From NCBI RefSeq assembly GCF_965641715.1, contig NZ_OZ282453.1: DNA of 64,000 nt; one strand, 5' to 3'. Source of the stretch: Escherichia coli. Lineage in GTDB: Bacteria; Pseudomonadota; Gammaproteobacteria; Enterobacterales; Enterobacteriaceae. The translations under genes and the position numbers were made by a program. Positions 8,174 to 43,394 of this stretch are shown piece after piece; within the stretch, counting starts at the first letter, position 1, and every line of letters begins with the position of its first letter. A model generated the notes under the pieces. That model did not search any database. It saw only the letters and a list, made by a program, of their open reading frames with translations, and was not told the DNA's origin.

Positions 8174-8824
8174 TTAATTTGATTTATTCGCATCCATCAG
8201 CGCTTTTAACTCCTCCGGCGTAAACGGTGGTTTGCGTCGGTGCAACATCGCATGGCAATTAGGGCACACAGGAAGTAAATCATTAACTGGATCCAGCTGG
8301 TAATCCTCTTTAATGGCTGAAAGCGGCACCAGGTGATGCATATGGATAAAACCCTCAGCGATATCGCCATAGATCTTCACCAGATCAACGCCGCATACGT
8401 TGCACTGGCATCCGTGATGTTCGACTGCTTTCTCGCGAGCTTTTTTATCGCGTTCATAGCGGTTTACCGTCACCTTTATCGCCGCACCTTCAACGTAGGT
8501 CCCCTGCGACGGCAACTCATCCGGGAACAGAACATCGGCTATGGGAGCCGCAGCGGCTTTATCCTGATGAATATGAAATCCCTGATCTATAAGTAGCTTG
8601 ACGCATTTAGATTTTATTCCGCCGGTGAAATCCGCAGGGGTAAATTGCGTCCCCGTCATCAATGTCGCTGCGATGCCAGCAATCGCCTTCGAGGGGTAAC
8701 GTCGGCCATGATATTCAATCTCATACAACCGCGCAGGCTGGAACTGATGAGTTTCTCCCGCATCCCATAAATGGATAGCTTCGATGATATACCGCCGCGG
8801 AAGATGGTCGGGAAGTTTATTCAT
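8174..8824 (-). CDS. HNH endonuclease-domain protein (216 aa) with an uncharacterised N-terminal domain
   Basis: C-terminal His-Me finger: HHGCQCNVCGVDLVKIYGDIAEGFIHMHHLVPLS...NDLLPVCPNCHAMLHRR; convergent with nanS, 8 bp apart. Confidence 0.6.
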   Translation of the reverse strand: MNKLPDHLPRRYIIEAIHLWDAGETHQFQPARLYEIEYHGRRYPSKAIAGIAATLMTGTQFTPADFTGGIKSKCVKLLIDQGFHIHQDKAAAAPIADVLFPDELPSQGTYVEGAAIKVTVNRYERDKKAREKAVEHHGCQCNVCGVDLVKIYGDIAEGFIHMHHLVPLSAIKEDYQLDPVNDLLPVCPNCHAMLHRRKPPFTPEELKALMDANKSN

Positions 8825-8903
8825 GGGGAATATCCTTATACGTTCTCAGAACAGGCAGCAAAAAAACAAATGAGATCAAGGTAATATATCTTCACTTGCA
8901 GGC

Positions 8904-9146
8904 TTGAACAGCAGAAAATTTGCGAGCATGATCGCAATTATTTCACTGCCAGGGATATCAATGGCTTCCAGTAAATCGCTACAGCAGGCAATTGCCAATA
9001 TAAAAATCTGGCACAAGGGTGAACAGCGCACGCCGCATAAGCCATTGTTATTGCTATACGTATTAGCGGGATACCTGAATGGACATCCGCACCTTTTCGA
9101 TTATTGTAGTGGAACAGTCTACGAGGATGCAGTTCGAAGTGAGTAA
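8904..9146 (+). pseudogene. Truncated 5' fragment of a gene paralogous to the HNH protein at 40750-41670
   Basis: Fragment ...LQQAIANIKIWHKGEQRTPHKPLLLLYVLAGYLNGHPHLFDYCSG aligns with N-terminal ALKQAISNITIWRKGEQRAPHKPLLLLHVLSHYRQGHGRLFNYGSE of the 306-aa protein; the ORF stops after 80 aa. Confidence 0.55.
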
Positions 9147-9202
9147 GTAAAGGTTGCTGGAAACGATCAATGCCGCCATACAATGATATTTGAGGATCAA
9201 CA

Positions 9203-9388
9203 ATGAGTAATAAAAACTACGAAAGTCACCGCAAAGCGATTGTTAGTAAAGGTATACCACCCGCTCTATTAAATAGGCTCACCAATTCGGATGTTCAGGT
9301 GATCAATACCTTCTTAACACGAGTGAGCAAACTGGAACTATCTCAACAAGAGAAAGACTGGATCATAAAAATCATCTCTATGGTTTAG
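9203..9388 (+). CDS. Small hypothetical protein (61 aa)
   Basis: ORF only; no recognisable motif. Confidence 0.25.
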   Translation: MSNKNYESHRKAIVSKGIPPALLNRLTNSDVQVINTFLTRVSKLELSQQEKDWIIKIISMV

Positions 9389-9406
9389 AGAATTTCAGCC
9401 TTGTAG

Positions 9407-10075
9407 TGGTCAACAAAAACTGGTCACAATTTTAGATTTTTCCAGTATCTATTTTCCGATTCGTTCGGCGGTAATCCACCGATATATTCATGAGGCCGGG
9501 GTACACTACAATATTCAATAGACTGTTATTACATAGGCATCCTCGTTGAGTCTAACGTAACCAGCCACTGATATCCACTCGTACTTCAGGCTTCTGAAAA
9601 AATGTTCCATTGGGCTATTATCCCAGCAGTTTCCCCGGCGACTCATACTCTACTTGATCCGATAACACCACAGCACCTACCTGAACTGTCCGCTTGTGTA
9701 ATGGCTCCCCTGGTCGCCCTTTTAAGAGTCAAGACGTTATCGGGATGCTGTTGATTTCGTTGTAATGTATAAACTTCACGTCGCCACACCACACTTGATT
9801 TGGCTCTGTCACGGCGAACTGCCGTTCAGGGAGTCCTGACATCAAGAGCGCGGTAGCTTTTTTCCTTTAGCCTCACGTATTTCGATTTGTTCCGGAATTA
9901 TCAGGGAGGTTTTTGGTGTTTTGCCCTTACGCTCATCACGCTGTTGTTTGCCCCATCTTGTTATCGAGGAAAAGCCGACATCCATAGCTTTGGCGGCATC
10001 TGCCACAGTATTGTTCGGGGTGAACATATCCTCTGTTCAGGTGGACAAATTCAGTAAACCATTACATATGAGGCA
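9407..10075 (-). mobile_element. Internally deleted IS3-family (IS911-like) insertion-sequence remnant
   Basis: IS3-type end TGTAGTGGTCAACAAAAACTGGTCA at about 9407; orfA fragment at 9842-10027 ([33 protein letters not shown]...EQIEIRE, IS911 OrfA-like); broken orfB C-terminal pieces at about 9440-9800 (PNQVWCGDV..., [15 protein letters not shown]-like); second end-like sequence near 10030-10075. Confidence 0.7.
9842..10027 (-). pseudogene. IS911-like transposase OrfA fragment
   Basis: Helix-turn-helix segment of IS3-family OrfA; N-terminus missing and no intact orfB follows. Confidence 0.7.
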
Positions 10076-41670: not shown

Positions 41671-41840
41671 CTATATGTACATTCAAGGCATTATTGCAGA
41701 CATCCTTTTTGCCTGACTGCTCTGTACCTGGCAGATGAAATTCTGATAACAACGGTAAAAAATACAGCGACCAACCAGTCCTAAGCGGGCTGGTTGGTCT
41801 TTTAAATTTAAACATCAGCCGAGGAATAACGGCATTCAAC

Positions 41841-43109
41841 TCACTCGCCATTACCCCGATTGATCTTCGCATAGTCAAACGGCGTAATCGCTCTCTCCCG
41901 ATTGGCATCCAGAAAATCAGCCCACCACTGCAACATCAGCTTGCGCTCATCCAGGTGTTCCGCTTTATGGATATACGCCGCCCTCACCGAGCTGCGTTCC
42001 ATATGGCTCATCTGCCTTTCCACCGCATCCTTCGACCATAACCCTGACTCAATCAATGAGCTACAGGCCATTGTGCGGAAGCCGTGGCCGCAAACTTCAA
42101 CCTTAGTGTCATAACCCATCACCCGTAGCGCACTGTTTACCGTGTTCTCGCTCATGGGCTTACGCGGATCGTGATCGCCAATAAAAATCAGCTCATGTTC
42201 GCCACAGAACTGTTTTATCTGCTTCAGGATCGCCAGCGCCTGCTTTGAAAGCGGCACCAGATGCGGTGTACGCATCTTTGAACCTCGCTGAGAATGTTTC
42301 ACACCGGGAATCGGTTCTCGCTCAGGCGGGATGGTCCACATTGACGTTTCAAAATCGATTTCTGACCAGCGAGCAAAACGTAGCTCACTGGATCGAATAA
42401 AGATAAGCAGAGTGAGTTCTGTCGCCCAGCGGGTTAGCGGCCTGCCTGTATAGCTATCTATTTTCTCAAGTAACTCAGGGATACGCTTTAATTCCAGCGC
42501 CGGGCGATGCTGTCGATTGCCAGAGGCGACTGCTCCAGCCATCTCCTGCGCTGGGTTGTAATCAATCAGCCCACTTTGCACTGCATAACGCATAATGGCC
42601 GTGGTACGCTGTTGGAGACGAGAAGCCACCTCAAGACGTCCAGACAGTTCCACCGCTTTAATGGGTGCCAGTAAGTCACGAGTGCCCAATTCGGCAATAT
42701 TGCGAGAACCAATTGCCGGGAAGATATTGTCCTCCAGGCTCTTTTTTACACGATTAGCATGATCTTCTGACCATTTTTGGTTGGTTACGAGCCACTCTCT
42801 GGCAACCTTCTCGAAAGTAATAATCTCTTTCGCCTGCTCTTCTTTCACAGCACGCTTATGCTCACGAGGATCGATACCAGCAGCTACCAGCTTTCTGGCC
42901 TCTTCCCTTTTCTTCCTGGCATCTGCCAGCGAAACATCCGGGTAAACGCCGAACGCCATCAAATGTTGTTTACCGCCAAAACGGAAACGAAATCGCCAAT
43001 ACTTTGAACCGCCAGGTTTTACAAGTAAGGACATGCCATCGCCGTCAACAAGTGAATACTCTTTCTCCTCAGGTTTCGCAGAGCGAACTTTAGTATCCGT
43101 TAGGGCCAT
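41841..43109 (-). CDS. intB: P4-type tyrosine integrase (from the ATG at 43109; the ORF track starts at 43187)
   Basis: MALTDTKVRSAKPEEKEYSLVDGDG...; C-terminal ...HGFRTMACSSLIESG... catalytic region; about 200 bp from the leuX 3' end. Confidence 0.9.
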   Translation of the reverse strand: MALTDTKVRSAKPEEKEYSLVDGDGMSLLVKPGGSKYWRFRFRFGGKQHLMAFGVYPDVSLADARKKREEARKLVAAGIDPREHKRAVKEEQAKEIITFEKVAREWLVTNQKWSEDHANRVKKSLEDNIFPAIGSRNIAELGTRDLLAPIKAVELSGRLEVASRLQQRTTAIMRYAVQSGLIDYNPAQEMAGAVASGNRQHRPALELKRIPELLEKIDSYTGRPLTRWATELTLLIFIRSSELRFARWSEIDFETSMWTIPPEREPIPGVKHSQRGSKMRTPHLVPLSKQALAILKQIKQFCGEHELIFIGDHDPRKPMSENTVNSALRVMGYDTKVEVCGHGFRTMACSSLIESGLWSKDAVERQMSHMERSSVRAAYIHKAEHLDERKLMLQWWADFLDANRERAITPFDYAKINRGNGE

Positions 43110-43270
43110 AATGGTCTTCCTTCCATTGGTATCTCGTGAGTATACAAGCAATATCGAATCGGCAAATATACTCATTAGTATACTCACAAGCCTGTTGATG
43201 TGGGTTGGTTCAGGTTGACTTCAGTTGAGGAGAAAAGCTGGAAAAGCCTTGCGTGGCGCGGATTTCAGGC

Positions 43271-43298
43271 ATAAAAAAAGACCTCAGTTGAGGTCTAT
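43271..43298 (-). terminator. Rho-independent terminator downstream of leuX
   Basis: Hairpin AGACCTCAGTTGAGGTCT followed by a T-run on the tRNA strand. Confidence 0.6.
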
Positions 43299-43309
43299 TT
43301 ACATACTTT

Positions 43310-43394
43310 TGGTGCCGAAGGCCGGACTCGAACCGGCACGTATTTCTACGGTTGATTTTGAATCAACTGCGTCTACCGATTTCGCCACTTCGGC
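43310..43394 (-). tRNA. leuX: tRNA-Leu (leuX), intact with CCA end
   Basis: Reverse complement GCCGAAGTGGCGAAATCGGTAGACGCAGTTGATTCAAAATCAACCGTAGAAATACGTGCCGGTTCGAGTCCGGCCTTCGGCACCA; 85 nt. Confidence 0.95.

Follow-up and report, generated by a model that had tools for sequence, protein, structure and literature searches.

We analysed a 64,000-nt stretch of Escherichia coli DNA (RefSeq assembly GCF_965641715.1, contig NZ_OZ282453.1), here called the window, in which accessory DNA occupies the interval between the tRNA gene leuX and nanS. Positions 8170-43309 very probably form a composite island at the leuX hot spot, made up of two tandem integrative elements, of which the one distal to leuX carries apsAB, the genes of a published anti-plasmid system. 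On the same reading, the KpLE2 element of E. coli K-12 is another occupant of this site, and the K-12 pseudogene yjhR is unrelated to the large helicase gene of the apsAB pair.

Architecture of the leuX-nanS interval

The interval examined was 8174-43394 of the window, i.e. exactly leuX to nanS. The window is inverted in orientation relative to K-12, with the fim and nan genes at low coordinates (nanS ends at 8166) and ahr and the idn genes past leuX. The features that define the interval and the sequences it shares with K-12 were as follows (IS, insertion sequence; aa, amino acids):

7159-8166, plus strand: nanS, core flank (blastn against K-12; K-12 and A30 annotation)
8796-9104, plus strand: N-terminal fragment of a phosphorothioate-dependent restriction endonuclease (85-88% to K-12, 42294-42527 of the K-12 locus; pseudogene in A30)
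9402-10055, no strand assigned: degenerate IS3-family (IS911/ISEc52-like) remnants (74-87% by blastn to K-12 IS911 pieces; 'integrase core domain' pseudogene in A30)
18371-18636, minus strand: decayed P4-type integrase (tblastn with IntB residues 313-400, 45%; sequence reading)
18762-18830, minus strand: degenerate second copy of the leuX 3′ end (GGCCTTCGCACCA) with terminator hairpin and downstream sequence (alignment to 43180-43345; blastn to K-12)
41841-43187, minus strand: intact P4-type tyrosine integrase, IntB orthologue (Pfam Arm-DNA-bind_3, Phage_int_M, Phage_integrase; 82% aa identity to IntB)
43310-43394, minus strand: leuX, tRNA-Leu(CAA), the integration site (ARAGORN; Rfam tRNA, 59.4 bits)

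A scan of the island with Rfam gave no match besides leuX. The intact integrase at leuX, the remnant of a second integrase and the copy of the leuX 3′ end with its terminator led us to read the interval as two leuX-targeting elements in tandem. The decayed integrase consists of an N-terminal stub that terminates at a stop codon and, beyond it, a C-terminal fragment, and is likewise a pseudogene in strains A30 and SaT040, which carry related islands. Upstream of these integrase remnants lies GGCCTTCGCACCA, followed by a terminator-like hairpin (18802-18785) and approximately 70 nt that align to the leuX 3′ end and the sequence downstream of it. Judged from sequence, 18762-18830 is the junction of the two tandem islands and the putative former attachment site of the distal element.

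The proximal element (~18.83-43.31 kb) comprises the intact integrase at leuX, a CP4-57-like backbone and restriction and other defence cargo, whilst the distal element (8.17 to ~18.83 kb) comprises apsAB, the decayed integrase, IS debris, the restriction-endonuclease fragment and an HNH endonuclease gene. With the island divided in this way, apsAB travels with the dead integrase. The proximal element resembles the CP4-57/CP4-6/CP4-44 family in carrying AlpA, YfjJ/YagK, an MMR_HSR1 GTPase, DUF932, RadC, CbeA/CbtA and DUF4942, a gene set that we take to be a hallmark of the family; it differs in being located at leuX rather than ssrA, thrW or the CP4-44 site of K-12, and in having a different defence cargo.

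The K-12 MG1655 reference stretch ran from idnD to fimI. Its corresponding interval contains intB, IS elements, nanXY, fecIRABCDE, yjhUFGHI, the sgc operon, yjhP, yjhQ-topAI and the yjhR pseudogene beside nanS, with 'KpLE2 phage-like element' as one annotated feature. By blastn, window positions 883-8169 on the fim/nan side matched K-12 at 98.0% identity, the homology stopping 3 bases past nanS, and positions 41859-45700 matched at 89% in a block spanning the integrase, leuX, ahr and idnK. The stretch separating the two blocks contained only four small matches: the restriction-endonuclease fragment (8796-9104), which also lies beside nanS in K-12; the IS3/IS911 debris (9402-10055); a 45-bp copy of leuX-downstream sequence (18762-18805); and a weak match (70%) between an intact restriction endonuclease gene of the window and the K-12 fragment. 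When 31 proteins of the K-12 interval and KpLE2 were searched against the whole window by tblastn, IntB alone matched within the island, with 82% aa identity to 41859-43052 and 45% to the remnant at 18371-18559; the sole other match was of K-12 YjhF to the core paralogue idnT, outside the island. Neither these searches nor blastn detected fec, sgc, yjh, nanXY, topAI(-yjhQ) or yjhR genes in the island. The original prediction, made from the window sequence alone, had held that the leuX-nanS content differs from that of KpLE2 and lacks fec and sgc, and both the leuX to fim alignment and the protein searches bear this out.

As far as these alignments can tell, the leuX site holds KpLE2 in K-12 and different elements in the window. 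The two islands are alike in their integration site, in an orthologous P4-type integrase (82% aa) adjoining leuX, in the restriction-endonuclease fragment beside nanS and in IS911-type debris, and the homologous items are confined to the integrase, the fragment and the debris. They differ in their entire cargo, fecIRABCDE, sgc, yjhFGHI, nanXY, topAI-yjhQ and yjhR all being present in K-12 and absent from the window, and in that intB is annotated as a pseudogene in K-12 whereas the window integrase is intact. The 22-kb fec-sgc block of K-12 is contiguous in 396 genomes. The shared fragment and debris, together with an integrase that is 82% identical, would also be expected if a K-12-like KpLE2 had lost fec, sgc and other genes by deletion and then gained scattered insertions, with no replacement. 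We consider this history very improbable, given that no KpLE2 cargo gene is left even as a fragment, that the interval has its own intact integrase as well as a second integrase remnant with an attachment site-like copy, that the backbone genes together form a coherent set of CP4-57 type, and that the same arrangement occurs in other strains at 95-99% identity. Replacement of one leuX occupant by another remains our preferred reading; leuX is a classic genomic-island hot spot, where strain-to-strain replacement of content is expected.

Identity of the large gene pair and its relation to yjhR

The distal element is dominated by two large overlapping genes and the spacer upstream of them (SF, helicase superfamily):

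10302-12533, minus strand: apsB, Argonaute-like partner, 743 aa (Y409, K413, Q431-G432, K489 and C-terminal N743)
12530-17239, minus strand: apsA, SF2 helicase with C-terminal PD-(D/E)xK nuclease, 1569 aa
17240-18365, no strand assigned: non-coding AT-rich spacer upstream of apsA, ~1.1 kb (GC content ~0.42-0.43)

apsA lies upstream of apsB, with a 4-nt overlap at 12530-12533 (ATGA; apsA stop and apsB start). The spacer contains no open reading frame (ORF) of at least 55 aa except for a 59-aa ORF (17260-17439, plus strand) at its apsA-proximal edge, and a scan of 10000-18900 for promoters and terminators scored no higher than shuffled sequence, the copied leuX terminator excepted.

Neither protein had a match in Pfam, NCBIfam, PADLOC, PHROG or the sequences of the PDB, even with all 20 family members scanned, and the RefSeq protein accessions gave no match as a literature query. 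Homologues of each form approximately 50 clusters in Gammaproteobacteria, all named 'hypothetical' and none with a recorded Pfam domain. As sequence and profile searches gave nothing, the pair was identified through fold searches and then the literature. In independent fold searches DdmD and DdmE were top-ranked, DdmE being the nearest solved fold to ApsB and DdmD to the nuclease region of ApsA. The AlphaFold model of ApsB had a mean confidence (pLDDT) of 76.6; that of the C-terminal 420 residues of ApsA had a pLDDT of 81.8 and a pTM of 0.82, and placed the D/DxK residues on a helix-strand-strand core. An alignment of 20 ApsA family members, down to 30% identity, revealed invariant D-G-T-G-F-G-K-S (215-222), D532-E-x-H535, S-A-T (823-825) and Q1140-A-x-G-R-x-E-R, as well as E1387, D1420 and D1433-x-K1435 at the C-terminus. 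The ApsB motif Y409-x3-K413...Q431-G...K489 and the C-terminal N743 were invariant in 24 homologues. Profile alignment of the apsA family to the window HsdR and to a DEAD/DEAH helicase of A30 (hhalign) aligned only helicase motif VI, with a probability of <1%, and did not help to place the helicase.

ApsAB was described in E. coli sequence type (ST) 38, where it acts against plasmids and is encoded by a tRNA-Leu genomic island (Zongo et al., Nat Commun 2024, PMC11096173). Against the proteins of the ST38 record NZ_OZ204848.1, the window ORFs, both intact, showed full-length aa identities of 92.4% (ApsA) and 92.5% (ApsB). All published motifs and mutated residues are kept in the window (ApsA K221, E533 and K1435; ApsB K413), and the ApsA motifs fall at the published positions: GFGKS 218-222, DELH 532-535, SAT 823-825, QAVGRVER 1140-1147 and D1420...D1433-V-K1435. 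By the measure of sequence, the 1569-aa and 743-aa products are ApsA and ApsB of the published system. Both proteins are required there and plasmids are actively removed; ApsA K221A, ApsA E533A and ApsB K413A abolish plasmid destabilization and K1435A reduces it (PMC11096173). The system eliminates IncL pOXA-48, p15A, ColE1 and pMB1 plasmids, pSC101 and IncF plasmids not being eliminated, and an E. coli variant with 92/92% identity is also active and clears a ColE1 plasmid (PMC11096173).

The window and ST38 are alike in gene pair, order and lengths (1569 and 743 aa), and in both the module lies in a leuX island beside an integrase remnant. They differ in that the window allele is closest to that of A30 (99.9% and 99.5%), its activity is a prediction from sequence and the surrounding island is another one. 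Relative to leuX, the integrase remnant, apsA and apsB also lie in opposite orientations in the two (ST38 locus 31879-39223; window 10302-18559), which suggests that the module may have moved or flipped as a block.

The original prediction had tentatively placed a helicase-family pseudogene, yjhR, beside nanS in K-12, had described a helicase-like product of '1570 aa' in the window, and had proposed that the intact gene could be the undecayed ancestral form of yjhR. K-12 annotation and the AAA_12 domain of YjhR confirm the first point, and the second is correct at motif level, the ORF at 12530-17239 (minus strand) encoding 1569 aa with invariant SF2 motifs. The proposed ancestry, in contrast, failed. 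The translation of K-12 yjhR (338 aa) contains AAA_12 (6.7e-19; the Upf1-like C-terminal RecA domain of SF1) followed by PLDc_2 (2.9e-11) in Pfam, and YjhR is read as the end part of an SF1 helicase joined to a phospholipase D (PLD)-type nuclease. BLASTP of YjhR against the 1569/1581-aa product and the 743-aa partner found no similarity (best E values 2.3 and 1.5, with no real alignment), tblastn against the whole window gave no match, and Pfam found neither AAA_12 nor PLDc_2 in ApsA, which combines SF2 DExH motifs with a PD-(D/E)xK nuclease where YjhR combines SF1 with PLD. The two genes are nonetheless equivalent in place: both are helicase-derived, directed toward nanS and situated right next to the shared restriction-endonuclease fragment on its leuX side, as decayed and intact versions of one gene would be. 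In view of the failed alignments and the different domains, and with the truncated form of the yjhR region present in 1477 of 5426 complete genomes as against 148 for apsAB, we give this descent almost no credence; the correspondence is evidently one of position, not homology. An intact yjhR was also sought in a match annotated 'DEAD/DEAH box helicase', which turned out to be this pseudogene again, with an IS66 element as an additional disruption.

ApsAB in other genomes and its structural similarity to DdmDE

Of 5426 complete E. coli genomes, 148 carried apsAB, always on the chromosome. The 30 RefSeq records listed all label its two products as hypothetical proteins. apsA and apsB were neighbours in every genome inspected (Vibrio, Photorhabdus, Oceanisphaera, Pseudomonas, Psychrobium and Ferrimonas), mostly within defence or mobile islands, and four of the six neighbourhoods contained known defence genes or defence-associated regulators. 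A BrxR-type WYL regulator (WHD_BrxR/WYL/BrxR_CTD) was divergently encoded upstream of the apsA homologue in Vibrio toranzoniae (8984-9907) and Psychrobium (7793-8665; locus coordinates), the Psychrobium pair lying inside a Tn7-like element. The Pseudomonas pair was found near Gabija-like genes and Mrr, and that of Ferrimonas near type I restriction-modification (R-M), HNH_2 and AAA_15 genes. In Photorhabdus a PIN toxin-antitoxin pair and contact-dependent inhibition (CDI) toxin genes were nearby, and no defence neighbours were present in Oceanisphaera. A search of the window with the Vibrio and Psychrobium BrxR proteins (tblastn) found no remnant of such a regulator upstream of apsA.

This company of Gabija-like genes, Mrr, type I R-M and BrxR-type regulators in defence islands is what would be expected if the large gene pair were a helicase-nuclease defence against phages, akin to Hachiman, Druantia or DISARM, rather than one against plasmids. 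PADLOC matched no such system, however, the partner protein folds like Argonaute/DdmE, and the published ST38 system cleared plasmids and gave no protection against eight coliphages (PMC11096173). We regard an anti-phage identity as very unlikely and retain the anti-plasmid assignment.

The structurally closest solved system is DdmDE of Vibrio cholerae and Lactobacillus casei, with both partners alike in fold (ApsA to DdmD, ApsB to DdmE). The differences are considerable. Sequence similarity was not detected (searches of PDB chains, DdmD and DdmE among them, with phmmer and hmmsearch gave nothing at E<=1, and PADLOC had no match), ApsA is approximately 400 aa longer, and ApsB has a MID-type Y-K-Q-K motif that is absent from DdmE (PMC11096173). 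In the published account of DdmDE, a DNA-guided Argonaute disassembles an auto-inhibited DdmD dimer and hands the DNA over. The fold matches to DdmD and DdmE, taken with that mechanism, suggest a similar sequence of steps for ApsAB. ApsB, with its MID-type 5′-end-binding pocket, would locate the plasmid by means of a nucleic-acid guide; it would then recruit or activate ApsA, or hand plasmid DNA to it; and ApsA, as an SF2 helicase-nuclease, would translocate along the plasmid and degrade it.

Remaining cargo, related islands and implications

The other genes of the island, most of them in the proximal element, are listed below with the evidence for each assignment:

8174-8824, minus strand: HNH endonuclease, 216 aa (Pfam HNH E 2e-4; weak PADLOC mREase_IV matches)
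18938-19744, minus strand: Xre-type helix-turn-helix (HTH) regulator, 268 aa (Pfam HTH_3 1.7e-13)
19850-20125, minus strand: ParE/RelE-family toxin (Pfam ParE_toxin 1.3e-15)
20129-20401, minus strand: RHH/CopG antitoxin (Pfam RHH_1 4.5e-7)
20454-23430, minus strand: CP4-type backbone including DUF4942 (Pfam)
21402-21743, minus strand: CbtA toxin (Pfam)
21774-22109, minus strand: CbeA/YeeU antitoxin (Pfam)
22109-22582, minus strand: RadC (Pfam)
22612-23430, minus strand: DUF932 protein (Pfam)
23667-24620, minus strand: hypothetical protein, 317 aa (no match in Pfam, NCBIfam, PADLOC or PHROG)
25214-25828, plus strand: YagK/YfjJ-family protein (Pfam YagK_YfjJ_C 3.1e-38)
25946-26164, plus strand: AlpA-family regulator (Phage_AlpA 3.2e-10)
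26367-28988, minus strand: operon headed by a WYL/HTH regulator at 28218-28988 (Pfam, PADLOC)
27165-28178, minus strand: MMR_HSR1 GTPase of the WYL operon, 337 aa (Pfam, PADLOC)
26367-27152, minus strand: hypothetical protein of the WYL operon, 261 aa (phrog_36014)
29217-30194, minus strand: TIR-domain protein (TIR_2 2.4e-13; PADLOC ThsB1/ThsB, full length, 3.1e-157)
30410-37797, plus strand: type I R-M operon, with hsdM at 30410-32116, hsdS at 32106-33461 and hsdR at 34663-37797
33454-34647, plus strand: DUF4268/PDC-S11 gene embedded in the R-M operon (Pfam; PADLOC PDC-S11)
37862-39604, plus strand: GTPase-like P-loop protein, 580 aa (G1 GDTGAGKT, G3 DGEG, G4 TKLD; sequence, with Pfam matches sub-threshold only)
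39707-40672, plus strand: 5′-nucleotidase family protein, defence candidate PDC-S08 (Pfam 4.1e-119; PADLOC PDC-S08 5.3e-134)
40750-41670, minus strand: intact phosphorothioated-DNA-binding HNH restriction endonuclease, beside the integrase (NCBIfam NF045808 5.1e-133, 443 bits; HNH_2)

The cargo had been described as type I R-M, TIR, a helicase operon, GTPases, HNH nucleases and toxin-antitoxin pairs, and each of these classes was found by Pfam, PADLOC, NCBIfam or motif reading. HsdM, HsdS and HsdR are encoded together and are assigned to a type I R-M system (Pfam N6_Mtase 4.7e-115, Methylase_S 2.3e-38 and HSDR_N/SWI2_SNF2/T1RH-like_C; PADLOC MTase_I, Specificity_I and REase_I). The TIR protein recalls the ThsB of Thoeris, but ThsA had no match among the island proteins scanned; its neighbours are instead the operon of WYL regulator, GTPase and 261-aa protein on one side and hsdM on the other, and the same orphan arrangement is present in SaT040. 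The gene for the 580-aa GTPase-like protein lies in a stretch with a GC content of 0.34-0.39, directly upstream of the PDC-S08 gene, and was found in two of 5426 complete E. coli genomes. This protein, perhaps together with the PDC-S08 nucleotidase, and the ThsA-less TIR protein beside the WYL operon may represent undescribed defence modules. At the other end of the island, the HNH gene at 8174-8824 is inserted exactly between the nanS stop codon and the restriction-endonuclease fragment; it is present in A30 and absent from K-12 and SaT040-type strains.

The whole island was found in no complete RefSeq genome, and none of these covered at least 80% of 30000-45000. Large parts of it are shared nonetheless. 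The baboon strain A30 matches window positions 1-29358 at 99.0% identity with the same gene order, but has another R-M/helicase block in place of 29359-39695. SaT040-type strains match most of 10244-37801, as well as 40756-44609, at 95-97.5% with the same gene order; they differ in lacking 8222-10243, in having a different hsdS, and in lacking 37802-40755, which contains the 580-aa GTPase-like gene and the 5′-nucleotidase gene. Most of hsdS (32117-33349) had no SaT040 megablast match whilst the flanking hsdM and hsdR were 95-97% identical, a mismatch that implies a different type I recognition specificity. We also considered whether the island corresponds to the 'GI-leuX' of ST131 strain EC958 (NZ_HG941718.1, 4913777-4994000) and rejected this match; SaT040, ZH063 and G749 are probably ST131 isolates as well. 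The two share the tRNA site and, in kind, CP4-type backbone genes (GTPase, DUF932, YeeU/CbtA), but the EC958 locus resembles that of K-12 in containing fec and is enlarged by cah, McrBC, an Eco31I-type R-M system and an insertion of ISEcp1-CMY-23; apsAB is absent from it. The comparisons with A30, SaT040, EC958 and K-12 together indicate that the occupants of leuX differ widely among strains. Beyond the island, an idnK-idnD-idnO-idnT-idnR block (44610-49697) adjoining ahr is present in the window, K-12 and ST38, and absent from A30, SaT040 and EC958, in which yjgR comes directly after ahr.

Several observations weigh against the interpretation developed here. No third copy of the leuX 3′ end was found within 3 mismatches near the nanS junction, and there was no clean right-end repeat near 8170. 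Integrase decay and the internal attachment site-like copy point to the distal element being the older of the two, an order of acquisition that we infer. A promoter scan upstream of apsA gave nothing above shuffled background, which bears on the expression of this allele, and plasmid clearance by it is a prediction, the published activity being that of the ST38 system and the 92/92% variant. PDC-S08, PDC-S11, the orphan ThsB-like TIR protein and the GTPases are defence candidates only, and the 337-aa GTPase may be plain CP4-type backbone. The guide-and-handover mechanism proposed for ApsAB is borrowed from DdmDE, and the authors of the ApsAB study found ApsB and DdmE to lack similarity in sequence and considered their predicted structures different (PMC11096173). 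Our fold searches, contrary to that view, placed ApsB nearest DdmE. A joint reading, in which ApsAB and DdmDE would belong to one guide-and-handover superfamily and undescribed defence modules would exist among the uncharacterized island genes, seems to us rather doubtful.

In sum, variable leuX islands were already known, as was ApsAB, characterized in 2024. The small new points are that apsAB here lies on a decayed second leuX element, that its RefSeq annotation is still hypothetical, that DdmE and DdmD are its nearest structures, and that the island carries a rare GTPase-like gene and an orphan gene for a ThsB-like TIR protein. What the analysis usefully adds is a set of corrections and annotations: the link to yjhR is false, the 'hypothetical' RefSeq pair is apsAB, and the island consists of two tandem elements. 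With the solved DdmD and DdmE as its closest structures, ApsAB gains a concrete mechanistic hypothesis. As the system has been shown to expel IncL/pOXA-48, ColE1, p15A and pMB1 plasmids, the presence of apsAB may serve as a predictor of the plasmids that a strain tolerates.

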